NCBI GenBank assembly: GCA_035495255.1 | Contig: DATJGD010000012.1 | Location: forward strand, 34,775 to 98,774 | Reading direction: 5' to 3' | Source: Bacteroidota bacterium | GTDB lineage: Bacteria > Bacteroidota > Ignavibacteria > UBA10030 > SZUA-254 | DNA length: 64,000 nt | Part shown: piece by piece, positions 8,631 to 45,194 of the stretch | Numbering within the stretch: position 1 is the first letter of the stretch | How the letters are laid out: the number at the start of each line of letters is the position of its first letter | Position numbers and translations under genes: made by a program | The notes under the pieces: generated by a model | What the model was told of the DNA's origin: nothing | What the model saw: the letters and a program-made list of their open reading frames with translations, nothing else | Database searches by the model: none

Positions 8631-8665
8631 GAAGTACCGTGAGCCACAGGCCGCTTACGTTTCTC

Positions 8666-9022
8666 ATGGCAGCGTTGTTGGTTGGTTGCACTTCCACGAA
8701 TACATTTACCCGTGAAGAGCTTATCGCCGACCAAAGCCATAGCATCGTCGTTCACACGTATGACGGCAGAGTCATCCGGTTTTCTAAAGGCGACTACAGG
8801 ATCAGCCGTGTCGATCCCGGAAAGCTCGCGGGGAATGGAAAGCTGGTAGTAAATGAGACCTCCGGATCCGCCAGAGATTGGGAGGGAGATCTCACGTTCG
8901 ATGAAATTAAATCAATTTCGTACTCCGAACCGACGATCTTCGGAGCTGCTTCGGCTGTGTTCTTTATCGGTCTCGGCGCGCTGATCATATTGCTGGTTGC
9001 GTATCCGCCAAAAATGCATTGA
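8666..9022 (+). CDS. hypothetical lipoprotein with a C-terminal TM helix
   Basis: MAALLVGC lipobox, a soluble ~90-aa domain and a C-terminal hydrophobic helix. Start placed after the stop of the upstream S9 gene (the ORF track starts at 8588, inside that gene). Confidence 0.5.
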   Translation: MAALLVGCTSTNTFTREELIADQSHSIVVHTYDGRVIRFSKGDYRISRVDPGKLAGNGKLVVNETSGSARDWEGDLTFDEIKSISYSEPTIFGAASAVFFIGLGALIILLVAYPPKMH

Positions 9023-9034
9023 TGGAACAGGAAA

Positions 9035-9856
9035 ATGACCTTCATCCAAAAACTTCGTAACATCCAGCGCAAAAATAATTCATTGGTCTGCATCGGCCTC
9101 GACACCGATGTGACAAAGGTCCCCGAGTCGTTGTACCGTTGGGGTGATCCGCAATTTGAGTTCAACCGCCGGATCATCGACGCCACCAAAGATCTGGTTT
9201 GCGCCTACAAGCTGAATATTTCATTCTACGAGTCGGTCGGCGAGCACGGATGGTACACGGTGCACCAGACGCTTGCGCGCATTCCCGAAGAAATCGTGAC
9301 CATCGGGGACGGCAAGCGCGGCGACATCCCGAGCTCGGCCGAACGCCAGGCCCATCTCCTCTGCAACGATTGGGAATTTTCCGGAACGACGGTAAACCCC
9401 TACATGGGAGGCGATTCCGTCGAACCGTTTACCAGGAGACCCGAACAGTGCGCGTTCGTTCTTGCTGTCACGTCGAACAAGGGATCGAAGGATTTTCAAC
9501 ACCTCAAGGTCAACGGCAAGCCATTGTACGAGCACGTAGTCCGTACCGCGAAGAAGTGGAACAAGAAAAAGAATATCGGTCTCGTGGTCGGAGCGACACG
9601 CCCGGCGGAGCTGAAGCGCGTGAGATCGCTTGCGCCGGAGATGCCTATTCTCATCCCGGGCATCGGCGCACAAAAAGGAGATCTGGCCTCGACGGTTCGC
9701 TACGGCTGCGACAAGAACGGAGAGCTCGCGATCATCAACATCGGGCGCGCAATTATCAACGCCTCGACCGGCGACGATTTTGCGGAGAGGGCACGGGAAG
9801 CTACGATCCGGTACCGAAATCAGATCAACGAAATCCGCGAGAAATACTTCCGCTAG
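9035..9856 (+). CDS. pyrF: orotidine-5'-phosphate decarboxylase (long type-2 form)
   Basis: 273 aa. VCIGLDTD..., DGKRGDI, and a C-terminal IINIGRAI motif typical of OMP decarboxylase. Confidence 0.85.
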   Translation: MTFIQKLRNIQRKNNSLVCIGLDTDVTKVPESLYRWGDPQFEFNRRIIDATKDLVCAYKLNISFYESVGEHGWYTVHQTLARIPEEIVTIGDGKRGDIPSSAERQAHLLCNDWEFSGTTVNPYMGGDSVEPFTRRPEQCAFVLAVTSNKGSKDFQHLKVNGKPLYEHVVRTAKKWNKKKNIGLVVGATRPAELKRVRSLAPEMPILIPGIGAQKGDLASTVRYGCDKNGELAIINIGRAIINASTGDDFAERAREATIRYRNQINEIREKYFR

Positions 9857-11591: not shown

Positions 11592-14500
11592 TTATTGATC
11601 GACCTTCTCCTTCTCCAGCTGTTCGTAGTACTTCCGGATAAGTTCTTCGTAATCTTTTGAATATTTGCCTTCCCGGATCTTCAGCATCTCTTCGCGGAGC
11701 CTGTTCTTCCCCTCCTGCGTCGTGAGGTCGATATCGCCGGGGCTCAGGTGCGGATATGTTTTTCCGGCTTCGGCTTTTCTTCGTTTTTCAAAATCCTTTT
11801 CACGCGCCGAGCGTGAAGCGTCAAGGAGCCGGGAAAGAATGCGGTCCTGCTTTTCTATTGTTTGCGGATTCACTTCTCCCTGGTTGAGGTCGCCGACAAT
11901 TTCCTGCATGTCGTGCTGTACTCTGTCGAGATCTCCGAGGAGCTTGCTGAAATCGCCTGTATTCTTTGCTTCTTCGGACAAATCCTGCAGGGATTTTTGA
12001 ACCGTAGACTGCTGCTGCGCGAGGCGCTGGTATGCCGCCTGTTGCTGGGTCGACATCCCCTGTCCCTCGCTGCCGCCTTGGCCCATGGCTTGTTGGGTCC
12101 CGCTGTTAATGCCTTGCTGCTGGCCGGCCATCTGGCCCAGGCGTCCGAGAAGGCCCGACATTCCGCTTCCGCCTTTACCGCCCTGCGACATCGCGTTGAT
12201 CGCCGACTGCATCATTGAGGCGGCGCGGTTGAGCGCGCCCATCGATTCGCCCTGCTTCTGGGACGTGCCGTTGGGATTCCGCGTTTCCATATTTTGCATC
12301 GCATCCTGCATCCCCTTTTGCGCGTTGCCCAGTTCCCTGCTCATCTCGGGGCTCACGGCAAAGGTCTTCTTTGAAAGGTCTGCCATGGCGTTTGAAACTT
12401 TATCGAGGTCGCTCATGACCTCGTTCTGATTTTCCGCGCTCTGCCGGAAGCTCGGCGAATTCGGATCAAGATCCTTCGAGGTATTCTTCAACGCTTCTTC
12501 ATCCTTGGAAAGCTGGAGTACGTTCTGCAGCTGCTTCTTCATTTGATTGAGGACCTGCTTCGTCTGTTCGTCCTGCATCTGTTTCTGAACATCCGTCAGC
12601 TCCTGCTCCATTTCCCCGAGGTCTTTCTCCGACTCCTCCTGATCCTTCTGAGCCTCCTGCATGTTCCCGCTTTTCATTTGCTGCGACGCGCTGTTCATCT
12701 TCTTGCCCGTCTGCTTGTCTTTCATCGACTGCTCGGCCTTCGACATCTGCTCAAGCGGCATTTCCTTGGGAAACTCCTCCATCTTGTCCTTGAGCGCCGA
12801 CGTTTCTTTTTGCATCGATCCCATTTGTTTTTCGAGATCGTCCTGCTTCTTTGAAAGCTCATCCTGCTTCTTCTGATCGGAAGACTTGGACTGCGCCGTC
12901 TGCTGTTTCAAATCCTGCTGCTGCTTCTGCATCTCGTCGGCGCGCTTGACGAGCTCGTCGAGTTTCTGCTCGATCGCGATCCTCTTTAAAAGCTCGACAG
13001 TCCGCTCGAGGTTTTTCCGGAATTGATCTTCCGAGCCTTTGAGCTGTTCCATCGCGCGCTGCATCTCCTCGGGCGAAAGCTGTTTCATGGACTCCTGCAG
13101 CTTCTTGAGGGCCTGCTGAAGATCTGGGGATTTCAACTGGTCAAGAAGTTTCTGCAATTCCTGGAACTTTTCCATCGTCTGATTGGAGAGCAGCTTGTTG
13201 TCGTCCATCTTTTTCACCGCCTCGTCCATCTTTTGGGCGGTCTGGTCGAGGTTTTTCTTTAATTCGTCGTACCGCTTGAGAAGCTCTTCGGCTTTCTTTT
13301 GCTGCTGCCAGTCGGCTTTGTTCCGGTTCTTCTGGAGGTCGCGATGAAGCGACTCTATGTTCTTCTTCAATTCCTGCGCTTCCTTCGTCGCGTTCTCCAT
13401 CGACTCCATCGATTGCTGCTGCGACTGGCTTACGTCGCTGAACACTTCATCGAGTGAGGGAAGGCGGATCAGGTATGTTTCGCTGCGGCCTGATTTCGGC
13501 CCGTTGATATTGTCGTTATCAAACACTTCGGCATAGTACGCGACCGCGTCTTCCGGCACGAGACGGAGGGAGGTCAGATCCCAATGGTAGGATACGTCGT
13601 TCGCCTGCAGAGTTTTTGACGGGAGAGGAACCTCGACAAATGAATATTCTTCGCGAACCTGCTCGTAGCGTGATTGTGCGAGGCGGTACGCAATGCGCAG
13701 CTTCGAGAACCCGAAATCATCCTTCAGGCGCATGAACAGATCAACCGACTTTTGTTCCGTCAGATCGATATTTTTTCCCGGCGTGATGATCTCGACGGTC
13801 GGGTTTTCGTCATGAAGCAGTTTGACGCTGTATTCGACCGGATCGATGTTCGATAATCCGCTGAGATCCTTCAGTTCGAAATGATACGTGAGTTCTTTTT
13901 TCACGCTGGCGGTCCCGGTCGCGGCGCCATTTGAGATTGTCAAGGGGACCGTCGTGTGATCGCTCCACATCACAAGAGCGGAAGAGAGAGGCTTACTCGC
14001 ATCAAGCCGTACGCTGAGCCGGGATCCCGGATAGGCAGTAACGTCTCCCTGATTGTCTTCCAGTGTCCGCGACGGGATTTTTGTGTAGCCGGGAGACTCG
14101 ACCTGAATCCGGAACGACCGGATAAGAGGGCGGTCGAGAACGCTGATTTTATAGTTGTCGCTCTTGACGTCTTCGGCGGAGGCGTAATACTCCGTGGTCG
14201 TCCTGATGTTTGAAATCTCGGTTTCAAAGAGCCCCGCTGATTTGGGAACGAGATTGAGGGTCTCAAAATCTACCTGCCCCTCCTGCCGGGTCGACAGCGA
14301 AATCTGCCGCGGAGACTTGCCGCGGACACGAACGGTCACCGGCACGGATTGGCCGCGAACAGCGTCAATGTTGCCGGGTTCGACGGTGAGCTGAAGCGGC
14401 ATCGACGCCGCGAACGATGTTCCAAAATTGATGACTCTATAGAATGAATCGAACATCCCGAGCTGGGGAATCACGAAGACAAGCAGAATCAGCGCTGCGG

Positions 14501-15011
14501 CGTACAGAACGGTCTTCCGGATCTTCCGGACGCGCATGTCGCTGACGGCGTCGGTAAAGTTGAGGGGTTGCGCGTTTGTATATAAGTCGCTGAACGAAGC
14601 ATCGATGAGAGGCAGCGAATAGTGTCCGGTCAGCGCGTCTTTGTTCTCGTAGACCTGCATGGCATCGAGAAGGCGGTCCCGGACCTGAGGAAAATGTGAG
14701 CCTACTTTTTCCGCGAGAGCATGATGATCCTGCGATCTCGCCAACAGGGGCCGGACGAGGAGCCAGGCAGCCGCTGCTGCGACGACCGCGAGGGCGGCCG
14801 CGAAGAGGATCGTTCGCCCGATAACGCCGAAGGTGAAAACTTCTTCGAGCAGCGTCACGGCAAAGATCGCCGCAAACGCGATGAGCAGCGTCGCGAGCGT
14901 TCCATAGAGCACGCGCAACCGAAGCTCCCGGGTTCCGACGGCCTCAAGCCGGCGGAGGATCTCATTATAGGATGTTGATACGCCTGACATTATTAATGGG
15001 TCAACGCCCAT
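11592..15011 (-). CDS. giant membrane-anchored coiled-coil / Gln-Gly-rich low-complexity protein (architecture resembles the TIGR02302/DUF4175 family)
   Basis: 1139 aa. Three N-terminal TM helices, a ~400-aa beta-rich domain, a ~450-aa K/E/Q/M-rich coiled coil, a Gly/Gln-rich tract (GGKGGSGMSGLLGRLGQMAGQQQG...) and a conserved-looking C-terminus. An alternative start at M8 (14990) would abut the upstream gene's stop. The family name is from memory of that architecture, not a search. Confidence 0.75.
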   Translation of the reverse strand: MGVDPLIMSGVSTSYNEILRRLEAVGTRELRLRVLYGTLATLLIAFAAIFAVTLLEEVFTFGVIGRTILFAAALAVVAAAAAWLLVRPLLARSQDHHALAEKVGSHFPQVRDRLLDAMQVYENKDALTGHYSLPLIDASFSDLYTNAQPLNFTDAVSDMRVRKIRKTVLYAAALILLVFVIPQLGMFDSFYRVINFGTSFAASMPLQLTVEPGNIDAVRGQSVPVTVRVRGKSPRQISLSTRQEGQVDFETLNLVPKSAGLFETEISNIRTTTEYYASAEDVKSDNYKISVLDRPLIRSFRIQVESPGYTKIPSRTLEDNQGDVTAYPGSRLSVRLDASKPLSSALVMWSDHTTVPLTISNGAATGTASVKKELTYHFELKDLSGLSNIDPVEYSVKLLHDENPTVEIITPGKNIDLTEQKSVDLFMRLKDDFGFSKLRIAYRLAQSRYEQVREEYSFVEVPLPSKTLQANDVSYHWDLTSLRLVPEDAVAYYAEVFDNDNINGPKSGRSETYLIRLPSLDEVFSDVSQSQQQSMESMENATKEAQELKKNIESLHRDLQKNRNKADWQQQKKAEELLKRYDELKKNLDQTAQKMDEAVKKMDDNKLLSNQTMEKFQELQKLLDQLKSPDLQQALKKLQESMKQLSPEEMQRAMEQLKGSEDQFRKNLERTVELLKRIAIEQKLDELVKRADEMQKQQQDLKQQTAQSKSSDQKKQDELSKKQDDLEKQMGSMQKETSALKDKMEEFPKEMPLEQMSKAEQSMKDKQTGKKMNSASQQMKSGNMQEAQKDQEESEKDLGEMEQELTDVQKQMQDEQTKQVLNQMKKQLQNVLQLSKDEEALKNTSKDLDPNSPSFRQSAENQNEVMSDLDKVSNAMADLSKKTFAVSPEMSRELGNAQKGMQDAMQNMETRNPNGTSQKQGESMGALNRAASMMQSAINAMSQGGKGGSGMSGLLGRLGQMAGQQQGINSGTQQAMGQGGSEGQGMSTQQQAAYQRLAQQQSTVQKSLQDLSEEAKNTGDFSKLLGDLDRVQHDMQEIVGDLNQGEVNPQTIEKQDRILSRLLDASRSAREKDFEKRRKAEAGKTYPHLSPGDIDLTTQEGKNRLREEMLKIREGKYSKDYEELIRKYYEQLEKEKVDQ

Positions 15012-15697
15012 ACCACGATATTTGTTCCAAACTGAAGCGCCTCCTGGCGTTTCTCCGGTGAATCGCCATGCACTTCAGGGTCGTTCCAGGCGTCGCTGGG
15101 GTTCGACTCAAATGTATAATAGAGGACAAGCCTCCCGTTGTGAAAAAGCCCGAAGCCCTGCGGCGGCTTGCCGTCGTGCTCGTGCGTCTTTGGGGGGCCT
15201 TTCGGAAATTCAAACTGGCAGTGATAGAGGCCGTACGAGAACGGCAGCTCGACAAGATTCTGCGACGGGAAAATCTTCTTTACTTCGCGGCGGAACGCTT
15301 TGTCCATCCCGTAATCATCGTCGGCATACATGAACCCGCCGTTTTCAAGATATGCCCGGAGCCGCTGAATCTCGACGTCGGTGAACGAGATGTTGCCGTG
15401 GCCCGTCAAAAAGATAAAGGGATAGGAAAAAAACTTGTCGCTCATGATATCGACGAACTCGTACACCGGCTCAACCTGGACGAGCGTGTTCTGCCGGACA
15501 AAGTTCAGAAGGTTTACTTCACCCTGGGGATCATTGTACCAGTCTCCGCCCCCGGAGTATTTCAGGCGGGCAATCTTCAGTGAGCTGTTGACACCGGTCC
15601 CCTGGGGAAATGCAGCATAACAGATCAAAACCGTCAGCACAAAAGCGAACATAGTCCTCATCATACTATAAAAAGGTAACCAAGATAGGGAAAACAT
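14993..15697 (-). CDS. exported hypothetical protein (DUF4159-like), translationally coupled to the giant gene downstream
   Basis: 234 aa. Signal-peptide-like MMRTMFAFVLTVLICYAAFPQ. Its stop overlaps or abuts the start of the 1139-aa gene. The family assignment is tentative. Confidence 0.6.
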   Translation of the reverse strand: MFSLSWLPFYSMMRTMFAFVLTVLICYAAFPQGTGVNSSLKIARLKYSGGGDWYNDPQGEVNLLNFVRQNTLVQVEPVYEFVDIMSDKFFSYPFIFLTGHGNISFTDVEIQRLRAYLENGGFMYADDDYGMDKAFRREVKKIFPSQNLVELPFSYGLYHCQFEFPKGPPKTHEHDGKPPQGFGLFHNGRLVLYYTFESNPSDAWNDPEVHGDSPEKRQEALQFGTNIVVWALTH

Positions 15698-15808
15698 GCA
15701 ACCGGCGCCCTACCCCGTACGTTGAAAATCTGGCGATAATTGGTTATACTATGATAATACTCTACAAAACCCGTCTGTAATACTCGCAAACGAAAGGATT
15801 TTACGAAA

Positions 15809-17815
15809 ATGAGTGCTGTACACAGGGTGCTCGTCACCCTTTTCTTGTCTATGATGATCTATGCCTGCGCCCCAAAAACGTCGGACATTGTGGTTCTCGA
15901 AGTGGGCCCGTCGAAGGTCACCATGAGCGAATATGAGAGTTTCTTCACACGCAACAGCGGCGGCTGGGACGTCGCCAAGCAAAGCTCGATGGAGGAACGG
16001 GAAAGATTTCTCGATCTTCTCACAAACTACAAGCTGAAGCTCCGGGACGCGTACGACAAGAATCTTATCAATGATTCCGACATCGTTCGGGAGCTGCGGG
16101 AATACAGAACAAGCCTTGCCTCGACATATATTCTCGACCGCGAACTCACCGAGCCGGGCGTGAAGCTTCTGTACGAACGTCGCAAGGAGTACATTCGCCC
16201 GCAGCACATTCTCCTGTCGTTAAAACCGGATGCCTCCCCCGAAGAGACACTGAAAGCCTACTCGAAGGCGATGGAGATTATCCGCCTCGCGGCGTCGGGC
16301 CAGAGCTTTGATTCTCTCACGATGCAGTATTCGAGCGATCCCTCGACGAAGACGAATCGCGGAGACCTTTATTATATTACGACCGGAACGCTCGTGAAGC
16401 CGTTTGAAGACGCGATGTACAGCATTCCAAAAGGAAAGATCGGCAGCACGCCTGCCCGTTCATCGTTCGGCTATCATATCATCAAGATCCTCGACCGTGA
16501 GCCGACGCGCATCGTCAAGGCGCGTCATATCATGTCCCGTTTCAAATCGCAAACTCCCGACTCTTCAGAAGCCTCCGAAGCTCTTGCGCGCGTTCAGGGC
16601 TATGCGGACAGCCTAAAGAAGGGATGGGACTTCGCCAAGCTCGCGACGAAGGTTTCAGAGGATCCGGGAAGCGCGCCGAATGGCGGCGACCTTGGATGGT
16701 TTGAGCGGCGCCGGTGGGTTCTCCCGTTCGACGAAGCGGTCTTCAAACTTCGCCTCGGCGAAACGTCTTCGATCGTCCGGACTCCGTTCGGCTACCACAT
16801 TATCCGCATCGACAGTCAGAAATCGATTCCACCGTTTACGGACGCTGCGTTCAGAGATGAACTCAAGAAGATGTATCAGCAGCACCGCTACAGCGAAGAC
16901 TTCGCTGACTATGTCGCAAAAATGAAAACAGAATACGCGTTCGAGTTTAATGAGGAGGCGTTTAACGCTCTTGTGGCGCGCCTCGACTCCACAAAACTCA
17001 TCGGCGACAGCGCGTGGGACGACGGCATTCCTGCGGATGTCCGCGCTCTTCCTCTGCTGAAGATCAATCACAGATCGATCTCCGTCGATACGGTCGTCGC
17101 AGCCCTCGGCAACCGGGCGGAGTTCCGCAACACGTCCCTGCGGCGCGCGGACCTCAGGCCGCGCATTGACCGCATCGCCGAGTCGCTGCTTCTCGAAGCC
17201 AAGTCGGGGAAACTCGAGGCCCAGTATCCCGAGTTCGCCTCGTTAATGAAGGAGTATGACGACGGCGTTGTGCTGTATAAGGCGGAGCAAATGGAAGTGT
17301 GGAACAGAAACGTCGTTTCCGATTCGTCGCTGCGAAGCTACTACGAAGAGCACAAGGCCAAATTCATGTTCCCCGAAAAAGTCAACATCGCCGAAATCTT
17401 TGTCTCGACCGACACGATGGCCGCCAAGCTGTACGATTCGCTCTCCCGCGGCGCCGATTTTGCGACACTTGCGAAGCGGCATTCGGAAGATGTCGATCTC
17501 GGATCAAAGGGCGGCGAGCGGGGATTTCTTCCCGTCGACACCGATTCGCTCACAAAACTGGGAACGACGCTTCAGGCCGGCGAATACACTGAGCCGAAAC
17601 AGGTCGAAGAGGGCGGATTCGTCATCGTGAAATTGCTCGGGCGCCAGGCAGCCCGCCAGAAGACGTTCGACGAAGCGGGAGCCGAGTTATCAAACTCCTT
17701 CCAGGACACGAATTCAAAGCTCCTTGAACAGCAGTGGCTCGATCGTGTAAAAGGCCGCTATCCGGTGAAGCAATACAAGGAACGGCTGGTCGACGCCTTC
17801 AAAAAGGCACAATAA
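15809..17815 (+). CDS. periplasmic peptidyl-prolyl cis-trans isomerase, SurA/PpiD-like lipoprotein with two parvulin domains
   Basis: 668 aa. N-terminal signal/lipobox (..MMIYAC). Two PpiC/parvulin cores (SFGYHIIKILD and TPFGYHIIRIDS) separated by chaperone-like helical regions. Confidence 0.8.
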   Translation: MSAVHRVLVTLFLSMMIYACAPKTSDIVVLEVGPSKVTMSEYESFFTRNSGGWDVAKQSSMEERERFLDLLTNYKLKLRDAYDKNLINDSDIVRELREYRTSLASTYILDRELTEPGVKLLYERRKEYIRPQHILLSLKPDASPEETLKAYSKAMEIIRLAASGQSFDSLTMQYSSDPSTKTNRGDLYYITTGTLVKPFEDAMYSIPKGKIGSTPARSSFGYHIIKILDREPTRIVKARHIMSRFKSQTPDSSEASEALARVQGYADSLKKGWDFAKLATKVSEDPGSAPNGGDLGWFERRRWVLPFDEAVFKLRLGETSSIVRTPFGYHIIRIDSQKSIPPFTDAAFRDELKKMYQQHRYSEDFADYVAKMKTEYAFEFNEEAFNALVARLDSTKLIGDSAWDDGIPADVRALPLLKINHRSISVDTVVAALGNRAEFRNTSLRRADLRPRIDRIAESLLLEAKSGKLEAQYPEFASLMKEYDDGVVLYKAEQMEVWNRNVVSDSSLRSYYEEHKAKFMFPEKVNIAEIFVSTDTMAAKLYDSLSRGADFATLAKRHSEDVDLGSKGGERGFLPVDTDSLTKLGTTLQAGEYTEPKQVEEGGFVIVKLLGRQAARQKTFDEAGAELSNSFQDTNSKLLEQQWLDRVKGRYPVKQYKERLVDAFKKAQ

Positions 17816-17873
17816 GGACATCGGCGCGCGCAGTGAATGGCTCGCGGTGCCCCAAATTTCATAGAGCAACATA

Positions 17874-18734
17874 GTGCCGGCCCCAGCGTACTATAATAGT
17901 ATATGGCTCGCGGCACTCCTGCTTGTCGCCGCGTGCCGCGAAGAGAAACACGCGGACATCATTGCCCGCGTCGGAACCGTCGAGCTTACCCGGGCCGAGG
18001 CCTACGCGCATATCGATACGTCGGCATCCAGCATTGATCTCCAGCTTCAGGCGTACACGACATCCTGGATCAATTCGGAGTTGCTTCACCAGGAAGCAGA
18101 GCGCCAGAAGATCGAAGGATCGGACGAAGCCGAACGAAAGCTCTCGGACGCCCGGAAGCAGATGGTGAACCAGATGTTTCTCGATCACTATATGAAGTCT
18201 GATTCCGGAACGATTCACGAGCAGGAGCTCCACAATTATTATGACGCGCATGAGGCAGAATTTATCGCGCACGATCTCATGCTCAAACTGCGCATCGCGG
18301 TGTTCACTTCGCGGGATCGCGCGAGCGCATTCACAACAGGATTTATGAAAACGTCGAACTGGGACTCGGTCCTTGCTGAACCTTCCATCGCTTCGGGCCT
18401 GGTCCGCTCCTCGCTCCCCCAGTATTACTCTCAGCATACGCTGTTCCCGCCGGAGTTGTGGAGAATCGCGACAACGCTCTCGATCGACGACATCTCATTC
18501 CCGGTAAAAATATCCTCCGGATATGCCATCGTCCAGCCGATCGGAGCCGCGCGGGAGGGAAAACCGCTGCCGTTCGAACTGGTCCGCGATGAAATATATC
18601 AGCGGCTCCTCATCGAGCACCGCCGCACCAGGTACGACGCGCTGTTAGGAACCCTTCGACAGCGGTATGCTGTTGAAGTATTCACGGGTTCATTCCGGCA
18701 AGCAGATACGACACATCTTCAAACTCATGAATAA
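17874..18734 (+). CDS. SurA-N-terminal-domain chaperone-like lipoprotein with a degenerate parvulin-like C-terminus
   Basis: 286 aa. Lipobox LLLVAAC. Helical SurA_N-like region. C-terminal ..SSGYAIVQPI resembles a decayed parvulin core. Its stop overlaps the surA start. Confidence 0.6.
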   Translation: MPAPAYYNSIWLAALLLVAACREEKHADIIARVGTVELTRAEAYAHIDTSASSIDLQLQAYTTSWINSELLHQEAERQKIEGSDEAERKLSDARKQMVNQMFLDHYMKSDSGTIHEQELHNYYDAHEAEFIAHDLMLKLRIAVFTSRDRASAFTTGFMKTSNWDSVLAEPSIASGLVRSSLPQYYSQHTLFPPELWRIATTLSIDDISFPVKISSGYAIVQPIGAAREGKPLPFELVRDEIYQRLLIEHRRTRYDALLGTLRQRYAVEVFTGSFRQADTTHLQTHE

Positions 18735-20013
18735 ACAAACTCTCATTGCAGTCATCTGCCTCGCTGCTCTCCGTGTTCCGGACCGTGCGGCAGGCCAGTC
18801 GACCGTCGTCGACCGCATCGTCGCGGTGGTCGGGAGAGAATGCATTCTCCTCTCCGACGTCACCGCGCAGATCGATTTTTACACGCTCAACAATCACGTC
18901 GATCCTTCGACGCCGGGGCTGCGGGACCAGGTCCTCCAGGCAATGATCGACAAGAAACTCATGCTCTCGAAGGCCGCCGAAGACACGACGATCAACGTCC
19001 GCGAAGAAGACGTGACGAATCAGCTCGATGCCCTTGTCGCTCAACGCATACAGCAGGTCGGCTCCGAAAAGCGGCTTGAAGAGCTGTACGGAATGCCGAT
19101 CAGCAAGATGAAGCGCGAGTTCCGCGACGAGACGAGAAAAGAGCTCATGGTGCAGATGCTGCAGCAAAACAAATTCGGCGATGTTCAGGTCAGCCGCCGC
19201 GAGGTCGAGGAGTTTTACGCCACGTATAAGGACAGTTTGCCGAAAGTGCCGGAAGAACTGGAACTTTACCACATCTTCCGCCTGCCGAAGGTCAGCGAAT
19301 CCTCACGCGCGGCAACGATGGCAAAGGCGCAGAAGATTATCGATTCGATCAAGGCTGGAGGCGATTTTGCCGATTTCGCGCGCCGGTATTCTGAGGACAA
19401 GGGTACCGCGCAGTTCGGAGGCGACCTGGGGTTTGCCCGCCGCGGACAATTTCTCAGGGAATTCGAGGAAGCTGTTTTCTCCCTCAAGGAAAACCAGATC
19501 GCAAACATTGTTGAAACTCCGCTGGGACTTCACATCATGCAGCTGCTTGAACGGCGCGGCGAGTCCGTTCACGCCCGGCACATTCTTTTCAAAGTAGAGC
19601 GCACCGACGCCGATGCCGAATCGACGAAGGCATTTCTCCGTTCGCTGAAGGACAGCGTTCTCCGCGGGGGCGATTTTTCCGATCTCGCCAAACGGTATTC
19701 GGAAGACAAAGAATCGGGCCCGCAGGGGGGCCTCCTGGGAAGCTTTTCAACCTCGCAGTTTGACCAGTCGCTGCTCGATGTCGTGAAGGACATGAAGGAG
19801 GGCGATGTCAGCAATCCGGCGGAAGTGAACTACGGAACATCCAAGGGTTATCACATTATTTATCTCAAGAAACGAATTCCGGAACATACGATCAATATCA
19901 CCGACGACTGGAAGCGGCTCGAAGCGCTCGCCGTCAACGCGAAGCGAAACCAGCTCTACCTCGACTGGCTCAAGCAGCTGCGGTCGGAAATTTACTGGGA
20001 AACACGACTATAA
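18727..20013 (+). CDS. surA: periplasmic chaperone / PPIase SurA (two parvulin domains)
   Basis: Start at MNKQTLIAVICLAAL (signal peptide). SurA_N region followed by two parvulin domains (..TPLGLHIMQLLE.. and ..TSKGYHIIYLKK..). Confidence 0.8.
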   Translation: MNKQTLIAVICLAALRVPDRAAGQSTVVDRIVAVVGRECILLSDVTAQIDFYTLNNHVDPSTPGLRDQVLQAMIDKKLMLSKAAEDTTINVREEDVTNQLDALVAQRIQQVGSEKRLEELYGMPISKMKREFRDETRKELMVQMLQQNKFGDVQVSRREVEEFYATYKDSLPKVPEELELYHIFRLPKVSESSRAATMAKAQKIIDSIKAGGDFADFARRYSEDKGTAQFGGDLGFARRGQFLREFEEAVFSLKENQIANIVETPLGLHIMQLLERRGESVHARHILFKVERTDADAESTKAFLRSLKDSVLRGGDFSDLAKRYSEDKESGPQGGLLGSFSTSQFDQSLLDVVKDMKEGDVSNPAEVNYGTSKGYHIIYLKKRIPEHTINITDDWKRLEALAVNAKRNQLYLDWLKQLRSEIYWETRL

Positions 20014-20025
20014 TTACTTTCTTCC

Positions 20026-21018
20026 ATGGAAACCACAACCACTAACGACGTCGAATCCGTACAAGCTCTCAAAGCAAGCTTCGAGACGATCAAGAAAGAA
20101 ATCTCGAAGGTCATCGTCGGACAAGAGCCGATCATCGAGCAGTTGCTCATCTCGCTTCTTGCGCGTGGCCATTGCCTGCTGGTCGGAGTCCCCGGGCTCG
20201 CGAAAACGCTCCTGATCAAAACGCTCGCGGAGGTCATGGATCTCAAGTTCAGCAGAATCCAGTTCACACCTGACCTCATGCCGTCGGACATTACGGGGAC
20301 CGAAATCCTCGAAGACAACCGCACGACCGGAGAGAAATCGTTCAAGTTTATCCGCGGCCCTGTCTTCGCGAATATCCTGCTTGCCGACGAAATTAACAGG
20401 ACTCCACCGAAGACGCAGTCCGCGCTGCTCGAAGCCATGCAGGAACATCATGTCACCGCCGCCGGGCAGAAGTATACGCTCGAAGAGCCATTTTTTGTTC
20501 TCGCGACGCAGAACCCTATCGAACAGGAAGGAACGTATCCCCTTCCCGAGGCGCAGCTCGACCGTTTCATGTTCAACCTCTGGCTCGACTATCCGAGCGA
20601 GCGGGAAGAGCTGGAGATCGTGAAATCCACGACGAGCATGTACGTCCCGGAATTACGGCACGTCCTTCGCAAAGAAGAGATCCTGCACTATCAGAACCTG
20701 GTCCGAAGAGTCCCGGTTGCCGACAACGTCATCGCGTTCGCGGTGAACCTCGTCGGACGGACACGTCCCAAGTCGAACATGGCGCCGAAGTTCATCGGCG
20801 ACTGGCTCAGCTGGGGTGCGGGGCCCCGGGCGTCTCAATTCCTGATTCTTGGCGCGAAGACGCGCGCAATTCTTGAAGGCCGGCATACTCCCGACATTGA
20901 CGACGTGCGGCATGTCGTCGGCCCCGTCCTTCGTCATCGCATTGTGCCGAACTTTAACGCGGAAGCTGACGGGGTTACCGCCATGCAGATCATCGATAAA
21001 TTATTAGAAAATGATTGA
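20026..21018 (+). CDS. MoxR-family AAA+ ATPase
   Basis: 330 aa. Walker A GVPGLAKT, Walker B LLADEINR, sensor ...ATQNP..., typical MoxR length. 12 nt downstream of surA; overlaps the next gene. Confidence 0.9.
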   Translation: METTTTNDVESVQALKASFETIKKEISKVIVGQEPIIEQLLISLLARGHCLLVGVPGLAKTLLIKTLAEVMDLKFSRIQFTPDLMPSDITGTEILEDNRTTGEKSFKFIRGPVFANILLADEINRTPPKTQSALLEAMQEHHVTAAGQKYTLEEPFFVLATQNPIEQEGTYPLPEAQLDRFMFNLWLDYPSEREELEIVKSTTSMYVPELRHVLRKEEILHYQNLVRRVPVADNVIAFAVNLVGRTRPKSNMAPKFIGDWLSWGAGPRASQFLILGAKTRAILEGRHTPDIDDVRHVVGPVLRHRIVPNFNAEADGVTAMQIIDKLLEND

Positions 21019-23107
21019 GAGGCCCTCAATGATCAAACGAATACTGTTTTGGTCACTTTTCACGGTGGCTACGATCGCGCAGCTTGCCCCTGCGCAAACC
21101 GCGCGCAAGTATTGGGTGTACTTTACCGATAAAGGCCCCAGGTATCCTGCAACCGGAACGCTTTCAAAGAGTTCTCCGGGATATGAACGAGCCGTCAGCA
21201 GCATCACTCCGGCCGCACTCGCGCGGCGGGCGAAAGTACTTCCCGCGGGCGACGTTGTCGATGCGGGCGATCTTCCCCTCTACCAGCCCTATCTTCAGCG
21301 GATCGGACAAACAGGGGCAATTCGGCAGCGGGAATCGCGATGGTTGAATGCCGCAAGTTTCATCGCGACCGCCGATCAGCTTGCGATCATCTCAGGCTAT
21401 TCGTTCGTGAAGAGCGTAACATCTGTCAGGACGATGACAGTGCGAAGCAATTATCAACAGGAATTCCCGCCTGCGGTGCCCTTCGCCAAAACGGTCTCGC
21501 TCGATTACGGGCCTTCCGCAACTCAGAACCAGGTCATCAACACTCCGTCGCTCCACGAGCTCGGGATTACCGGACGCGGAGTCATCATCGGAATGCTCGA
21601 TACCGGTTTTCGCTGGAGAGCGCATGAGTCGCTGCAGTCGCGGTATGTCATCGCCGAACACGATTTTATTCAGAATGACGACACGACGGCAAACCAGGCC
21701 GGCGATTCGTTCAATCAGGATCAGCACGGGACCCTGACGTTTTCGACCATCGGCGGCTACATGCCGGGAAAGCTTATCGGGCCGGCGTTTAACGCGGGAT
21801 TTATTCTGGCAAAAACAGAGTACGTCCCTACCGAAACGAAAATAGAAGAAGACAATTGGGCGAACGCCATTGAGTGGATGGAAGGGCTCGGCGTAGATGT
21901 CGCGAGCAGCTCCCTCGGGTATGATAATTTTGATCCGCAGGGATCGCTTGATTCCAGCGATTACCGCTGGGTCGACGGCGACTTTAACGGCAGAACTTCC
22001 GTTACCGCGATCGCCGCGATCCATGCTGCGAGGCTCGGAGTAGTGGTTTGTAATGCGATGGGAAACGAAGGCAACGGGGATGGCGTCACCGCAACGATGC
22101 TGACGCCGGCCGATGCTGACAGCATTGTTTCAGTTGGAGCCGTGAATTTCTCGCGGGTGCTGGCCGGCTTCAGCTCGACCGGCCCCACGAATGACGGACG
22201 GACCAAGCCCGATGTCGTTGCTCCGGGGGTGAGCGTCTACTGTGCTTCCACCTCGGGGCCCGCTTCATATTTCAGCGTGAGCGGGACTTCGCTCGCGACT
22301 CCGCTGACCGGAGGAACTTCCGCGCTTATTCTCTCGGCACGGCCGGAGCTCACACCGATCCAGGTCCGCAATGCATTACATAACACCGCGATCCCGATTC
22401 TCGACAGCATCTATTATCCGTCGAGCCCGAATAATTTTACCGGTTGGGGGCTCATCGACGCGTTTAACGCGGCCCTTTCCTTCGGTCCGATCTTCAGCAA
22501 CCAGCCGCTGGTTGATTCCGTGAGCTCGGTAAGCATCGATATCGCGTCGAAGTTCGGGATTCGCCCGTCCGCCGTGTACTTTCATTACGCGATCGGCGGG
22601 AGCGCTGTCTACGATTCCATTCCTATGACGCTCGATTCTTCGATGTTCTTCCCGACCTCCGGCAGATACCGCGTCGCGGTTCCGCCGCAGGCAATCGGGA
22701 CTCTCGTTCACTTTTACATGACTGCGGCCGACAGCGCGTCGCTTTCGTATCAGAGTCCGGCTCCCGTGTTGAACAACGTCTGGCAGCTGAACTACGGAAC
22801 AACCGGCGTGAAGACCTCGTCTCAGTATCCGGCGGAGTACGCACTCCTTCAAAACTATCCCAATCCGTTTAATCCGTCGACCCGCATTTCCTACGATCTG
22901 CCGAAGCGGGAACACGTCCGCGTTCAGGTGTTTGACGTGCTCGGCCGGCTCATGGCAACTCTCGTCGACGAAGTGCAGGACGCGGGGAGCGGCGCATCGC
23001 GTTCTCCCGTCGTGTTCAACGCGGCCAACATGCCGAGCGGAATTTACTTTTACAGGATTACGACTCCATCGTTTACCTCGACGAAGAAGATGATGCTTGT
23101 TCGTTGA
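21011..23107 (+). CDS. secreted S8 subtilisin-like serine peptidase with a T9SS C-terminal sorting domain
   Basis: Signal peptide (MIKRILFWSLFTVATIAQLAPAQ), catalytic D (GMLDTGF), H (DQHGT) and S (SGTSLATP). The C-terminal ~80 aa (YPNPFNPSTRISYDL...IYFYRITT...KKMMLVR) is a Por/T9SS type-A CTD. Overlaps both neighbours. Confidence 0.85.
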   Translation: MIERPSMIKRILFWSLFTVATIAQLAPAQTARKYWVYFTDKGPRYPATGTLSKSSPGYERAVSSITPAALARRAKVLPAGDVVDAGDLPLYQPYLQRIGQTGAIRQRESRWLNAASFIATADQLAIISGYSFVKSVTSVRTMTVRSNYQQEFPPAVPFAKTVSLDYGPSATQNQVINTPSLHELGITGRGVIIGMLDTGFRWRAHESLQSRYVIAEHDFIQNDDTTANQAGDSFNQDQHGTLTFSTIGGYMPGKLIGPAFNAGFILAKTEYVPTETKIEEDNWANAIEWMEGLGVDVASSSLGYDNFDPQGSLDSSDYRWVDGDFNGRTSVTAIAAIHAARLGVVVCNAMGNEGNGDGVTATMLTPADADSIVSVGAVNFSRVLAGFSSTGPTNDGRTKPDVVAPGVSVYCASTSGPASYFSVSGTSLATPLTGGTSALILSARPELTPIQVRNALHNTAIPILDSIYYPSSPNNFTGWGLIDAFNAALSFGPIFSNQPLVDSVSSVSIDIASKFGIRPSAVYFHYAIGGSAVYDSIPMTLDSSMFFPTSGRYRVAVPPQAIGTLVHFYMTAADSASLSYQSPAPVLNNVWQLNYGTTGVKTSSQYPAEYALLQNYPNPFNPSTRISYDLPKREHVRVQVFDVLGRLMATLVDEVQDAGSGASRSPVVFNAANMPSGIYFYRITTPSFTSTKKMMLVR

Positions 23108-25283
23108 GGGTATGGCCATTGCGGAGATCTCCATATCGCTAGGGGGAAATGTCCTCGTTTTCCTGCTGTTCGGACTCGTCCTCGCCGCTCTTGCTCTTCT
23201 GTTCTACCGCTTCACGCTTCCGCCGCTTCCGCAGCGAACCCGATCCCTTCTTTCGCTGCTGCGGTCATTTGCCCTGATCTTTCTCCTCATGGCGCTGTTC
23301 GAGCCCGTGTCGCGCTTCGTCCGCCACACCGAACAACCCCCTGTCGTCGCCGTGCTTCTGGATAACTCCCAGAGCATGACGATCAACAGCTCTCCGGCGG
23401 CGCGCAAAAAGCAGGTTCAGGATCTCATCGGGCAGGGGCTGCTTCACAAGCTTCCTTCGGGCGCCCGGCTGCAGTATTACCCGTTCGACGCGAAAATGAA
23501 AACTGTCGCCGCCGCCAGCCCCGATTCGGTGACGTTCACGGGCGAAGTGACGAACATTTCGGATGCCTTCAGCGGCCTCAAGCCTCTGCTTGCGAAGGAA
23601 AACATACAGTCCGTTCTTCTCGTGAGCGACGGAAACTACACGGTCGGAAAGAACCCGTTGTATGATGCCGAAGGGCTGGGGATTCCCGTCTACACCGTCG
23701 GCGTCGGCGATACGAGCGAGCAGCAGGACATTGTCGTCGAGAAAACTACTACCAATGCCCTCGCGTACTCCGGCATGCGAACTCCGGTCGATGTCGTCAT
23801 CCGGAGCTCAGGGTACGACGGTACGAAGACGGAAGTGACATTATCCGAAAGCGGCACGGTGCTGGACCGCTCGGTAGTGACGCTTCAAAAAGGGACTCAT
23901 GAATATACCCTGAAGATGCATTTTCTTCCGATGGAGGAGGGAATAAAAAAACTTTTGGTAAACGTCACCCCCATTTCCGGTGAACTCACGACCCAAAACA
24001 ACAGCCGCTCGTTTTTTGTAAAAGTTCTGAAAAGCAAGCTCAATGTCGTTATTGTCGCAGGCGCTCCGAGCCCGGACCTCTCTGCGCTCCGGCAGGCGCT
24101 TGTTGAGGAGGGCCACTTCAGCATCCACTCTTTTGTGCAAAGGACCGCCGAAAGCTTTTACGAGGGCAGCCTTTCACAGGCGGCTCTCGACAGCGCCGAT
24201 TGTATGGTACTCATCGGTTTTCCCTCCCAGGCTTCAAACCCCTCTCTGATTCAGCGCTTACGGGACAACATCGTGCGGCGTAAACTCCCTCTCTTTTTTG
24301 TCGGCGGGAAAGGAATGAGCTACGGTAAGCTCCAGGCGTTGGAGGCGGTGCTGCCGTTCGGGTGGTCCGGCGAAAATCCGACCGAACTGCTCGTGAGCCC
24401 GATAGTTGAAGACCGGCAAAAGCATCATGCGCTGGTCGAACTCGAGAATAAATTTACATCCGAGAGCTGGCAGCAGCTTCCGCCCATTTATAAAGCACAG
24501 ACTATTTTTCACGGCCGCCCCGAGTCCGAGATACTCGTAACCGCGACGCTGCAGAGCATTAATCTGGGAGAACCTCTCGTCGTCATCCGGAAATCGTTAG
24601 GGCAGAAGTCTTTCGCAGTTACGGGTTACGGCATCTGGCGGTGGAGATTGTTGAGCGGCGACAACCAGCAGGCGAAGGAATTTCTTACCGACCTGGCTTC
24701 AAATGCCATCCGCTGGTTAACGACGCCGGAAGAGAACAAGCGGGTGAAGATCACGCCGAATCAGGAAGCGTTCACCACGGCAGACGAGGTCGGATTCAGC
24801 GGGCAGGTGTATGATGAGGAACTTCGGCCGGTCGATAACGCGGAGGTCGCCGTGCAGGTCACGCACGACGGTGAATCCATTCCCGTGGCTCTCACCGCTG
24901 TCGGCAACGGGTTGTACGAGGGTTCCGCCCAGGGATTACGGGCCGGAGACTATACCTTTTCCGGAGGCGCAACCCGCAACGGCATATCACTCGGAGAAGA
25001 CAAGGGAAAATTTTCTGTCGGCCAGGTAAGCGTGGAGTATATCGAGACAAAAATGAATAAGCAGCTTCTTGAACAGCTTGCGTACCGCACAGGCGGATCT
25101 TACAGAGACATTTCTTCCGCGGAAGCGATTACAGCTGACCTCCCCACGGGGACGGCATTCCGTTCGAGAGATCTCACCCAGGCGAGCGAGATCGAGCTGT
25201 GGAACTGGAAGTATCTTGCCGTCATCGTCATTGCACTGTTCTCCGCCGAATGGTTTGTGCGGAAAAGAAACGGAATGCTGTAA
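23097..25283 (+). CDS. membrane protein with an N-terminal double-TM domain, a vWA domain (BatA-like) and a C-terminal TM anchor
   Basis: 728 aa. Two N-terminal TM helices, then VVAVLLDNSQSM (MIDAS DxSxS) ... VSDGNY ... VGVGD, a large extracytoplasmic region and a terminal hydrophobic helix. Overlaps the S8 gene by 11 nt. Confidence 0.7.
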   Translation: MFVEGMAIAEISISLGGNVLVFLLFGLVLAALALLFYRFTLPPLPQRTRSLLSLLRSFALIFLLMALFEPVSRFVRHTEQPPVVAVLLDNSQSMTINSSPAARKKQVQDLIGQGLLHKLPSGARLQYYPFDAKMKTVAAASPDSVTFTGEVTNISDAFSGLKPLLAKENIQSVLLVSDGNYTVGKNPLYDAEGLGIPVYTVGVGDTSEQQDIVVEKTTTNALAYSGMRTPVDVVIRSSGYDGTKTEVTLSESGTVLDRSVVTLQKGTHEYTLKMHFLPMEEGIKKLLVNVTPISGELTTQNNSRSFFVKVLKSKLNVVIVAGAPSPDLSALRQALVEEGHFSIHSFVQRTAESFYEGSLSQAALDSADCMVLIGFPSQASNPSLIQRLRDNIVRRKLPLFFVGGKGMSYGKLQALEAVLPFGWSGENPTELLVSPIVEDRQKHHALVELENKFTSESWQQLPPIYKAQTIFHGRPESEILVTATLQSINLGEPLVVIRKSLGQKSFAVTGYGIWRWRLLSGDNQQAKEFLTDLASNAIRWLTTPEENKRVKITPNQEAFTTADEVGFSGQVYDEELRPVDNAEVAVQVTHDGESIPVALTAVGNGLYEGSAQGLRAGDYTFSGGATRNGISLGEDKGKFSVGQVSVEYIETKMNKQLLEQLAYRTGGSYRDISSAEAITADLPTGTAFRSRDLTQASEIELWNWKYLAVIVIALFSAEWFVRKRNGML

Positions 25284-31458: not shown

Positions 31459-31974
31459 TTAACCCAGTGAACGTCGAAAACCCATGACCGGTTTTTTCGG
31501 TTTGGGAACAAGGCCCGAAATGCGATGCATCTCCGACAGCAGTTCTTTTTCGCGCTCGTATCTTCCGATGCGTATCCTGAACCATCGGCGGCGGTCGTGA
31601 GTTTTGAAGACGACCACCTGGGAACGGCCGGCGGTGCGCACGCCGCTTTCTCTTCCGATATGGAACCACTCGATATTTGCCAGCGAGATCCGCCGTTCAT
31701 GAAACTTGTTGTGAAATATAATTTCGTCCCCTGCCAGAATGAGCTTACGGTCGCGCGCCCGGTTCAGCATCAATACGATAAACGATATCGCCACAAACAA
31801 GATGATGATATAGAGTATCGGATCGGCAATGAGCGTCGGCATTCGATCGAACGTAATCGTGCCGCGGATCCCGCCATAAAATATCAGCGTGATCATATAC
31901 AGGAGCGCCTGCTGATAATAGAAATCAAGCTTGTATTTGAATACCCGCGCATCGTGTTGTAACGTTCCTTCCAT
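31459..31974 (-). CDS. hypothetical membrane protein: 2 TM helices plus a bacterial-PH-like (YdbS/DUF304-like) soluble domain
   Basis: 171 aa. Two hydrophobic helices followed by a ~90-aa basic domain. The architecture resembles bPH_2 proteins; the assignment is tentative. Immediately downstream of murG (3-nt gap). Confidence 0.5.
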   Translation of the reverse strand: MEGTLQHDARVFKYKLDFYYQQALLYMITLIFYGGIRGTITFDRMPTLIADPILYIIILFVAISFIVLMLNRARDRKLILAGDEIIFHNKFHERRISLANIEWFHIGRESGVRTAGRSQVVVFKTHDRRRWFRIRIGRYEREKELLSEMHRISGLVPKPKKPVMGFRRSLG

Positions 31975-43756: not shown

Positions 43757-44197
43757 TTACCGCATGACTTTCGCGGCGATATTCTCGTACGGCTCCTGCT
43801 GGTTCTTCTTGTAGTCCTCGTAGCTTCCGGGATCCCACAACTCAATTTTGTCCAGCGTTCCGATGATCCGGACCTCGTCGCCGATGTTTGCAAACTCGCG
43901 CAGCTCCTGGGGAATGGAAAGGCGCGCCTGGCCGTCGAGCTGGCTTTCCGACGCGAGCTCGAGCAATGCTCTGATAAGGCTTCGATGCTCCGGATTGTAG
44001 GAGGAGAGGTTGCGCAGGGTTTGTTCGAGCTTGTTCCATTCGTCGATTGGATAGACGAACAGGCACTTCTCAAATCCGCGCGTGATGACGAAGGTGTCGC
44101 TGCATTCCGGATTGACGTACTTCCGCAGCTTGGCAGGAAGATTTACTCTTCCTTTCTCATCGACGGCATACATATATGAGCCCTTAAATGACGACAT
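43757..44197 (-). CDS. mraZ: transcriptional regulator MraZ
   Basis: 146 aa, two-fold-repeat MraZ. First gene of the dcw cluster. Confidence 0.9.
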   Translation of the reverse strand: MSSFKGSYMYAVDEKGRVNLPAKLRKYVNPECSDTFVITRGFEKCLFVYPIDEWNKLEQTLRNLSSYNPEHRSLIRALLELASESQLDGQARLSIPQELREFANIGDEVRIIGTLDKIELWDPGSYEDYKKNQQEPYENIAAKVMR

Positions 44198-44237
44198 TAT
44201 TTTTTCATTTCCTGATCTTCGACAAAATCCTTTAAAT

Positions 44238-44270
44238 CAAAAAAAATTCCACACCATTATTCCCCACTTT
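44238..44270 (-). promoter_or_regulatory. candidate MraZ operator: direct repeats GTGGGGA-N3-GTGGGGA (10-bp period) plus a degenerate third repeat, 40-75 bp upstream of mraZ
   Basis: The plus strand reads ttCCACACcattatTCCCCACtttTCCCCACcgg. On the mraZ strand this is GTGGGGaaaaGTGGGGaataatGGTGTGG. MraZ proteins are known to bind 10-bp-spaced GTGG[GT] direct repeats in their own promoter region. Confidence 0.5.
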
Positions 44271-44431
44271 TCCCCACCGGTGAAACTCCAATTTAGGGTT
44301 TTTTGCTTAAAAGTCAAGTGTTTTTTGCGTTTTGGAGGGAATTACTGGGCTTTTGTGAAGCCGAACAACAACTCTGAAGAAAAACGGCTAAAACGGGCTA
44401 TTTTCGAGGGTGCCTAAGGGCTCAAAATGGA

Positions 44432-45167: not shown

Positions 45168-45194
45168 TGAATCTGACGTATCGCCAATAAAGAA

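Follow-up and report, generated by a model that had tools for sequence, protein, structure and literature searches.

Two gene units of a putative envelope system in an Ignavibacteria-type bacterium: a conserved PPIase-MoxR-vWA block beside a DUF4159-DUF4175 pair

Eight genes between positions 11592 and 25283 of a 64-kb stretch of DNA (the window) from an uncultured Ignavibacteria-type bacterium encode three periplasmic peptidyl-prolyl isomerases (PPIases), a MoxR-type ATPase, a secreted subtilase, a membrane-anchored vWA protein and a pair of proteins of the DUF4159 and DUF4175 families. An earlier note had read them as one divergent module devoted to envelope protein maturation or quality control, and the question that the locus raises is whether they belong to one system or have merely come to lie side by side. 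The coordinates and families that the note assigned to all eight genes were borne out by an open reading frame (ORF) listing and hidden Markov model (HMM) scans, and the genes form two separate units, a plus-strand unit A of six genes (15809-25283) and a minus-strand unit B made up of the DUF4159-DUF4175 pair (11592-15697). The explanation favoured here, at a probability only somewhat better than even (about 0.55), is that both units belong to one ancient envelope system, a DUF58-less and split derivative of the MoxR/DUF58/BatA-vWA-GATase1-like/DUF4159(/DUF4175) module, whose two units were brought side by side by a lineage-specific rearrangement and which would operate by the transmembrane (TM) mechanism set out below. 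The features are as follows.

11592-15011, minus strand: DUF4175 inner-membrane protein, ORF of 1139 aa, likely 1132 aa (11592-14990); PF13779, E 1e-24.
14993-15697, minus strand: exported DUF4159 protein with a signal peptide, ORF of 234 aa, likely 219 aa (14993-15652); PF13709, E 7e-62.
15698-15808, between the strands: divergent intergenic region from DUF4159 to PPI1, with promoter-like hexamers on both strands.
15809-17815, plus strand: PPI1, a 668-aa lipoprotein (lipobox IYAC) with three parvulin-type PPIase domains; Rotamase_3 E 1e-53, Rotamase E 2e-51, Rotamase_2 E 1e-27.
17874-18734, plus strand: PPI2, a 286-aa PpiD/PrsA-like lipoprotein (lipobox VAAC) with a divergent parvulin domain; Rotamase_2 E 4e-10.
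18667-20013, plus strand: SurA-like periplasmic chaperone with a signal peptide, a SurA N-terminal domain and two parvulin domains; Rotamase_3 E 3e-45.
20026-21018, plus strand: cytoplasmic MoxR-type AAA+ ATPase of the MRP/AAA_3 type, 330 aa; AAA_3 E 2e-64, AAA_lid_2 E 9e-15.
21011-23107, plus strand: secreted S8A subtilase, 698 aa, with a signal peptide, a propeptide-like N-terminus, a catalytic domain and a C-terminal sorting domain of the type IX secretion system (T9SS); Peptidase_S8 (PF00082) E 3e-39.
23112-25283 (ORF from 23097), plus strand: BatA-like inner-membrane vWA protein, 723 aa, with three TM helices and a vWA fold.

The block is bordered on the left by purK-purE and on the right by ftsZ-ftsA-ftsQ-murB, part of the division and cell wall (dcw) cluster. 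Start sites were re-estimated from homologue lengths and an independent gene call on the same organism, giving likely starts at M16 for the DUF4159 protein, M8 for the DUF4175 protein, M21 for the SurA-like protein and ATG 23112 for the vWA protein; the sizes first proposed for the two unit B proteins hold for their ORFs but not for the likely products of 219 and 1132 aa. With these starts, a gap of 2 nt separates DUF4159 from DUF4175, PPI2 and the SurA-like gene overlap by 8 nt, the SurA-like gene and moxR lie 12 nt apart, moxR and the subtilase gene either overlap by 8 nt or are separated by 10 nt, and 4 nt lie between the subtilase and vWA genes. The tight packing of the plus strand and its 12-nt SurA/MoxR gap had been described correctly, but not all junctions are overlaps of stop and start. 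Judged from this spacing, unit A is probably co-transcribed. The top sigma-70-like match in a 15-kb scan (TTGAAA-17-TATACT, 15722-15750, plus strand) and a second, weaker one (15781-15754, minus strand) both fall in the divergent intergenic region and are matches to a consensus pattern only; the promoter and terminator scan yielded weak consensus matches throughout and was not counted as evidence of co-transcription. Neither DUF58 (PF01882) nor a second MoxR was matched in the eight proteins or the other scanned ORFs of the window.

Conservation of unit A was assessed in 80 loci, one genome per species, collected by a scan with the vWA alignment, and genes were counted by tblastn with the window proteins in those loci (referred to by L numbers) that had enough flanking sequence. 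The homologues come from metagenome-assembled genomes of Ignavibacteria or of 'Bacteroidota'. The order PPI1-PPI2-SurA-MoxR is found in 52 of 56 loci, MoxR adjoins the vWA gene, directly or via the subtilase gene (S8), in 64 of 66, and the SurA-MoxR gap is at most 200 nt in 55 of 58. The six-gene order is kept down to ~37% identity in the vWA protein and ~30% in PPI1. The flanks are clade-specific, with a gldG-like ABC transporter and a DUF4340 gene upstream in one clade and divergent genes in another. Because the order holds in 52 of 56 loci while the flanks differ between clades, the plus-strand block appears to be under selection, and its status as an operon conserved across Ignavibacteria is supported. 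The joining of chaperones and MoxR in one block, which the earlier note had pointed out for the window, recurs in most of these loci and is not unique to one genome; the adjacency of units A and B proved lineage-specific (see below).

Several loci depart from this arrangement. L025, L035, L044 and L046 carry MoxR-vWA without PPIase genes and have HlyD/ABC/MacB-type genes instead; in the L044 subclade (L044 2682-8591), genes for HlyD, an ABC ATPase and three MacB/FtsX-type permeases precede moxR-vWA. The vWA gene occurs without moxR in L055 and L067, and in the latter (7365-9794) a Lon protease gene takes the place of moxR, ~200 nt upstream of the vWA gene. In L063 (3952-6788), and also in L064, two genes for M16 (insulinase-type) peptidases lie between the SurA-like gene and moxR, giving the order PPI1-PPI2-SurA-M16-M16-MoxR-S8-vWA.

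Such variation could be accommodated by an operon of convenience, in which PPIases with a housekeeping role in outer-membrane biogenesis use one promoter together with a cut-down Bat-like MoxR-vWA stress module. The subtilase, an exoprotease serving nutrition, would have inserted between the two, the DUF pair would belong to the division cluster as an independent appendage, and no joint machine would exist. The PPIase-free loci agree with this account, as do the tolerance of insertions (the M16 pair, and an LptD_2 gene after the vWA gene in the L045 clade), the dispensability of S8 in two clades, the usually large distance between the DUF pair and the operon, and the lack of PPIases from a Bacteroidales Bat operon. 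Against it stand the persistence of the six-gene order to such low identities while the flanks turn over, and the short SurA-MoxR gaps. The inserted genes themselves also concern the envelope or proteolysis, which suggests a functional theme over random neighbours, and gene clusters outside the window, described below, tie the DUF families to MoxR-vWA. An operon of convenience is accordingly considered rather unlikely.

The subtilase occupies the position where DUF58 would be expected and had been taken to stand in for it. It has the Asp-His-Ser triad and the Asn oxyanion residue, D197, N352 and S427 being kept in 45 of 45 operon orthologues and H239 in 44, with an alignment gap in the other; its closest solved relative is subtilisin BPN' (E 4e-21). 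The Type A sorting domain at residues 616-695 scores 40 bits with TIGR04183 (cut-off 23) and 34.3 bits with PF18962, Por_Secre_tail (cut-off 27), and the propeptide-like region was read from the sequence. The protein should be a typical active S8A enzyme, and because it combines a signal peptide, a propeptide-like N-terminus and a T9SS sorting domain it is predicted to leave the cell. S8 lies between moxR and the vWA gene in 48 of 66 loci and, on a neighbour-joining tree of the vWA protein, is missing from exactly two clades, L077/L079 and one large monophyletic group, in which moxR is followed directly by the vWA gene (gaps of 60-255 nt) with nothing in the S8 slot. In these clades the MIDAS (metal-ion-dependent adhesion) site and the other conserved residues of the vWA protein, in its loop and tail, are unchanged. 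Because it is absent from two clades, the subtilase is better regarded as an accessory than as a replacement for DUF58, whose position it occupies without taking over its part; the most economical reading is an old accessory gene lost at least twice.

A closer tie between the subtilase and its neighbours can be envisaged, namely a dedicated maturation system: before its export, the T9SS subtilase would be folded, held or activated in the periplasm with the help of the PPIases, MoxR and the vWA protein, and the MIDAS site of the vWA protein would bind the protease itself or the propeptide. Folding in the periplasm is established for T9SS cargo. S8 is held tightly between moxR and the vWA gene (junctions of at most 10 nt) in the 48 loci that have it there, its catalytic residues are kept in 45 orthologues from the operons, and across the operons S8 and the vWA protein lose identity to their window counterparts broadly in parallel (36-69% versus 37-55%). 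The two clades without S8 nevertheless keep PPIase-MoxR-vWA or MoxR-vWA with the MIDAS site, loop and tail residues intact, and the MoxR/vWA-GATase1-like clusters of Gemmatirosa and Sinorhizobium have no protease at all, making subtilase maturation a highly improbable purpose of the block.

The vWA protein begins with TM1 (~13-31), a cytoplasmic loop (residues 32-45, YRFTLPPLPQRTR) and TM2 (~46-63), followed by a vWA domain with a MIDAS site (65-200), a beta-sandwich (Ig) domain (205-306), a GATase1-like domain (310-540), a second beta-sandwich (Ig) domain (545-637), a small alpha/beta unit, TM3 (699-719) and an RKRNGML tail (RKRxGML in the family). It is a membrane vWA protein, as had been recognized, with three TM helices in place of the two first counted. 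Because of the positive-inside rule, the body between TM2 and TM3 is predicted to face the periplasm. The MIDAS site is invariant in 79 of 79 orthologues, those from S8-less loci included; R717 and G721 are kept in 78 of 79, and Y32, T35, P37 and R51 are near-invariant (YRxTxPP...R loop). The closest structural match of the vWA domain is BatB. PF07584 (BatA_N) was undetected in the window protein and is not among the matches of 29 family members, while topology and vWA fold agree with BatA/BatB, with ~400 extra residues. About 5900 representatives (50%-identity clusters) of the vWA-GATase1-like family were found at E<=1e-30.

The predicted topology agrees with that of Borrelia burgdorferi BB0173, a protein with three TM anchors whose vWA domain was located in the periplasm by experiment (PMC5700661) and whose gene adjoins that of the MoxR protein BB0176. 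As the paper describes it, BB0173 is a vWA-only protein of the Bat type encoded in a DUF58/TPR/BatD cluster (PMC5700661); it would thus differ from the window protein in being without GATase1-like and Ig-like domains, and it has no linkage to PPIases or a protease.

MoxR itself scores 216 bits with AAA_3 (PF07726; cut-off 27), carries the Walker A and B motifs GVPGLAKT and LLADEINR, and has 2r44 as its closest solved structure (E 3e-79). Its AAA_3 core with AAA_lid_2, its length within the ~320-340 aa of MoxR-proper (MRP) proteins, its lack of a TM helix or signal peptide, and a vWA gene 2.1 kb downstream in the same block place it in the MRP group. At the edge of one further locus (L078 21696-22169), ~9.6 kb downstream of the vWA gene, a second MoxR-like match with 58% identity hints that some Ignavibacteria have a second MoxR paralogue, perhaps in a canonical Bat module.

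Comparison with that canonical module shows how far the window departs from it. The Bat operon of Parabacteroides distasonis encodes MoxR, DUF58, two short vWA proteins, TPR proteins and BatD. In Pfam and NCBIfam scans the window block gave no DUF58, second vWA protein, TPR proteins or BatD of the MoxR-DUF58-BatA-E arrangement; its vWA protein is twice as long (723 versus ~330 aa) by virtue of the additional Ig-like and GATase1-like domains, and three PPIase genes and a subtilase gene belong to the block. An aerotolerance role for Bat proteins was first proposed for Bacteroides fragilis. Unit A might be a classical Bat aerotolerance or oxidative-stress module, in which the vWA protein and MoxR keep the periplasmic redox state and the PPIases repair damaged envelope proteins. 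The MRP/AAA_3 type of MoxR and the structural proximity of the vWA domain to BatB would agree with this, as would the response of Riemerella Bat operons to heat and oxidative stress (PMC11834572). DUF58, the TPR proteins BatB/BatC/BatE and BatD are all absent from the block, though, the Pfam and NCBIfam scans revealed no redox-active domain in the eight proteins, and deletion of the Leptospira bat genes left tolerance of reactive oxygen unchanged (PMC3557215). A redox module of this kind is very doubtful, and the function of Bat proteins generally is still described as elusive (PMC3557215).

Relatives of the window genes also occur in other clusters. On plasmid 1 of Gemmatirosa kalamazoonensis (L086), a single strand encodes, in order, an 803-aa vWA homologue, a TPR/peptidase-MA protein, DUF4159, MoxR, DUF58, a BatA_N-VWA_2-GATase1_like protein and DUF4175. 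Over its full length the 803-aa protein is homologous to the vWA protein of the window (E 6e-38), MoxR shares 54% identity and DUF4175 matches at E 5e-39. The order in Sinorhizobium meliloti is MoxR, DUF58, a BatA_N...DUF4159 protein and an apparently frameshifted VWA/GATase1_like gene, and from this gene content the cluster is inferred to be of the RL3499-RL3502 type. A reading of RL3502 as a DUF4175 protein was rejected, the fourth gene of the S. meliloti cluster being VWA/GATase1_like. Relative to the S. meliloti type the Gemmatirosa cluster is fuller, as it adds DUF4175. Between them, clusters of the RL3499-RL3502 and Gemmatirosa type share MoxR (50-54% identity), DUF4159, a TM-vWA-GATase1-like protein and DUF4175 with the window, where all four occur. 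The window differs in having no DUF58, in a DUF4159 protein that is stand-alone and exported and not fused to a BatA_N anchor, in the division of the genes into two divergent units (separate, and usually far apart, in most Ignavibacteria), and in the addition of PPIases and S8. In L077 and L079, DUF4175 directly follows the vWA gene. Because of the Gemmatirosa cluster and the L077/L079 layout, the MoxR-vWA and DUF families can be tied together, and the comparisons point to DUF4159, DUF4175, MoxR and vWA as one recurrent system, linked outside the window, as the earlier note had supposed. None of the component families is new, and the module represents a known type of cluster that has undergone rearrangement, reduction and expansion. 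Full-text literature searches yielded no description of the chaperone-MoxR-protease-vWA arrangement or of a MoxR-DUF4159 pairing.

An envelope role fits both units, because all partners except MoxR are predicted to be exported or membrane proteins, and this part of the original proposal holds up. RL3499 of the Rhizobium RL3499-RL3502 operon is reported to matter for membrane integrity and cell morphology (PMC3893208; PMC5118466), the phenotype reported for the operon being a loss of envelope integrity with altered morphology (PMC3893208). Stress tolerance, envelope integrity and cell shape are affected by relatives of the module, namely the Bat operons and RL3499-RL3502.

In unit B, the DUF4159 protein matches its profile over the full length (positions 1-202 of 202; 209 bits); its homologues are 219-224 aa long, with one 100% identical, and share 70-85% identity across Ignavibacteria. 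The sole structure match of the family profile is the uncharacterised 4i66 (E 3e-6). It was considered whether DUF4159 might be a free-standing copy of the GATase1-like domain; this was dropped at the sequence level, a profile-profile comparison with the vWA family giving a probability of 0.2 and no similarity. DUF4159 also occurs as a stand-alone gene on the actinobacterial plasmid pCRULAC1 of Corynebacterium crudilactis (L085 11965-12582). This gene, with 46% identity to that of the window at the protein level, lies isolated in an IS26/IS6-rich region of aminoglycoside and sulfonamide resistance, far from its usual context, and is uninformative. The DUF4175 protein scores 87 bits against a cut-off of 27.3 over profile positions 190-770 of 825. 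In its model a TM hairpin leads into a cytoplasmic helical segment and a third TM helix; the periplasmic region, ~950 aa in total, consists of three beta-sandwich domains and then ~600 aa of helical bundles that hold Gln/Gly-rich low-complexity stretches. The NCBIfam models, TIGR02302 included, did not match it, and no specific structural relative was found; of the families for which the earlier note had proposed a search, DUF4159, DUF4175, Peptidase_S8 and Por_Secre_tail were matched and DUF58 and TIGR02302 were not.

DUF4159 is directly followed by DUF4175 in all eight contexts that have both (the window, L047, L081-L083 and L087-L089). In other Ignavibacteria the pair usually ends the dcw cluster, directly after ftsZ: L081, L083 and L088 have ftsZ, DUF4159 and DUF4175 on one strand, followed by convergent genes for DUF2851, pyrF, an S9 peptidase and dCTP deaminase, and pyrF and the S9 peptidase and dCTP deaminase genes likewise lie on the far side of the pair in the window. 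The L081 pair and the MoxR operon of L005 are on one contig, ~150 kb apart. In the window and in L047, its closest relative (FtsZ 93% identical), ftsZ and DUF4159 are separated by the 9.5-kb PPIase-MoxR-S8-vWA operon in inverted orientation, and the divergent layout is limited to these two. The adjacency of units A and B is therefore best read as a lineage-specific rearrangement, and the divergent, wrapped-around module first described, while present in the window, is not the general form of the system.

DUF4175 is repeatedly followed by genes for an M14 carboxypeptidase, an ECF sigma factor and a zf-HC2 anti-sigma factor (L036 804-3613; L087 11606-14384; L089 9636-12243); in L089 a 1249-aa gene intervenes between DUF4175 and the M14 gene, and in L036 the DUF4175-M14-sigma-anti-sigma string runs into the PPIase operon.

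The position after ftsZ recalls AdvA of Acinetobacter baumannii, an essential division protein annotated as DUF4175 and located at division sites (PMC7481262). The two proteins have in common the DUF4175 annotation and TM helices. The DUF4175 match of AdvA, however, lies in its first ~200 residues beside the TM helices, whereas that of the window protein covers profile positions 190-770. With such different parts of the profile matched, the two may share no homologous region, and the AdvA link is a lead only.

The three PPIases of unit A resemble known periplasmic chaperones without being assignable to one of them by orthology. The likely start of the third at M21 (18727) gives 428 aa; it scores 28.2 bits with SurA_N, below the cut-off of 30.8, and 27.6 with SurA_N_3, just above the cut-off of 27.2 (both ~E 2e-6), and its residues 22-443 align with the SurA equivalog model NF008038 at 115 bits, against a cut-off of 394. 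It is best called SurA-like, and none of the three PPIases reaches an NCBIfam equivalog cut-off. The 286-aa length of PPI2 was also given by the independent gene call. With the SurA, PpiD and parvulin chaperones of Gram-negative bacteria these proteins share either a SurA_N domain, two parvulin domains and a signal peptide, or the form of a parvulin lipoprotein; they differ in being encoded in one block with a MoxR-vWA pair, a fusion not found in the full-text literature searches. In about nine loci of the L045 clade (L045 12179-15347), the block is followed, ~12-16 nt after the vWA gene, by an ORF for an unknown 179-aa protein and then by a gene for an LptD_2 outer-membrane protein. In E. coli, lptD and surA are linked in one operon, and the LptD_2 gene of these loci recalls that linkage.

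How the favoured system of two units could work may be outlined as follows. A MoxR hexamer would contact the only two parts of the vWA protein that lie in the cytoplasm, its invariant YRxTxPP...R loop and its RKRxGML tail, and ATP-driven remodelling would then alter the periplasmic MIDAS/GATase1-like body, passing a signal across the membrane. This body, together with DUF4159 and the long DUF4175 protein, might act on an assembly step in the envelope or at the division site, the parvulin chaperones could supply folding capacity within the same regulon, and the subtilase, outside the core, would be carried along under shared regulation or be one client. A more far-reaching version, in which the MoxR ring, via loop and tail, powers an ATP-coupled periplasmic assembly for folding and quality control made up of the vWA/GATase1-like body, DUF4159, the periplasm-spanning DUF4175 and the three parvulins, possibly at the division site, is a long shot.

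Several observations weigh against a single envelope system working in this manner. The main weaknesses are that the vWA protein exposes only ~14 + 7 residues to the cytoplasm, which leaves an AAA+ ring little to grip, and that the canonical adaptor candidate, DUF58, is missing. The PPIase-free MoxR-vWA loci and the MoxR-free vWA loci described above show that the partners can be found apart, the one Bacteroidales Bat operon examined, that of P. distasonis, has no PPIase neighbours (in some Flavobacteriia moxR may be preceded by PPIase genes), and DUF4159 and the GATase1-like domain show no profile similarity to each other. In Leptospira, the assays applied to bat mutants revealed no phenotype (PMC3557215).

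Some further features of the window lie outside both units. A LonB/LonC-like protease gene (AAA_32, LonB lid, LonC helical and Lon_C domains; 3447-5894, plus strand) is situated between a RodA/PBP2 gene pair and the dCTP deaminase gene. In the dcw cluster, a 171-aa ORF without a Pfam match (31459-31974, minus strand) separates murG and murC, and an ORF of similar size, likewise unmatched in Pfam and followed by a small TauE-like gene, has the same position in L081-L083. The region 44000-46000, between the mraZ/rsmH end of the dcw cluster and mfd, has a GC content of 0.49 versus ~0.55 elsewhere; it contains only short ORFs at ~44200-45280 and, as in the rest of the window, Rfam and tRNA scans gave no match there. 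An Nramp metal transporter with a fused C-terminal universal stress protein domain is encoded at 57611-59473 (minus strand), adjoining a gene for a DtxR-type Fe-dependent repressor with a FeoA domain (59475-60131).

If the ATP-coupled version were true, it would represent an ATP-coupled chaperone system for the ATP-free periplasm. The locus offers two testable leads, one from the linkage to chaperones and a second, towards cell division, from the placement of DUF4159-DUF4175 right after ftsZ; if neither lead holds, the locus would be a useful and well-documented synteny variant and nothing more. Modules of the MoxR-vWA/Bat type are among the most widespread bacterial gene clusters without a known mechanism. 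The Ignavibacteria version, which has neither DUF58 nor TPR proteins and BatD and has gained three folding factors, narrows the hypothesis to envelope protein folding or assembly, and the short invariant loop and tail of its vWA protein are the only candidate contact for the ATPase in that protein.

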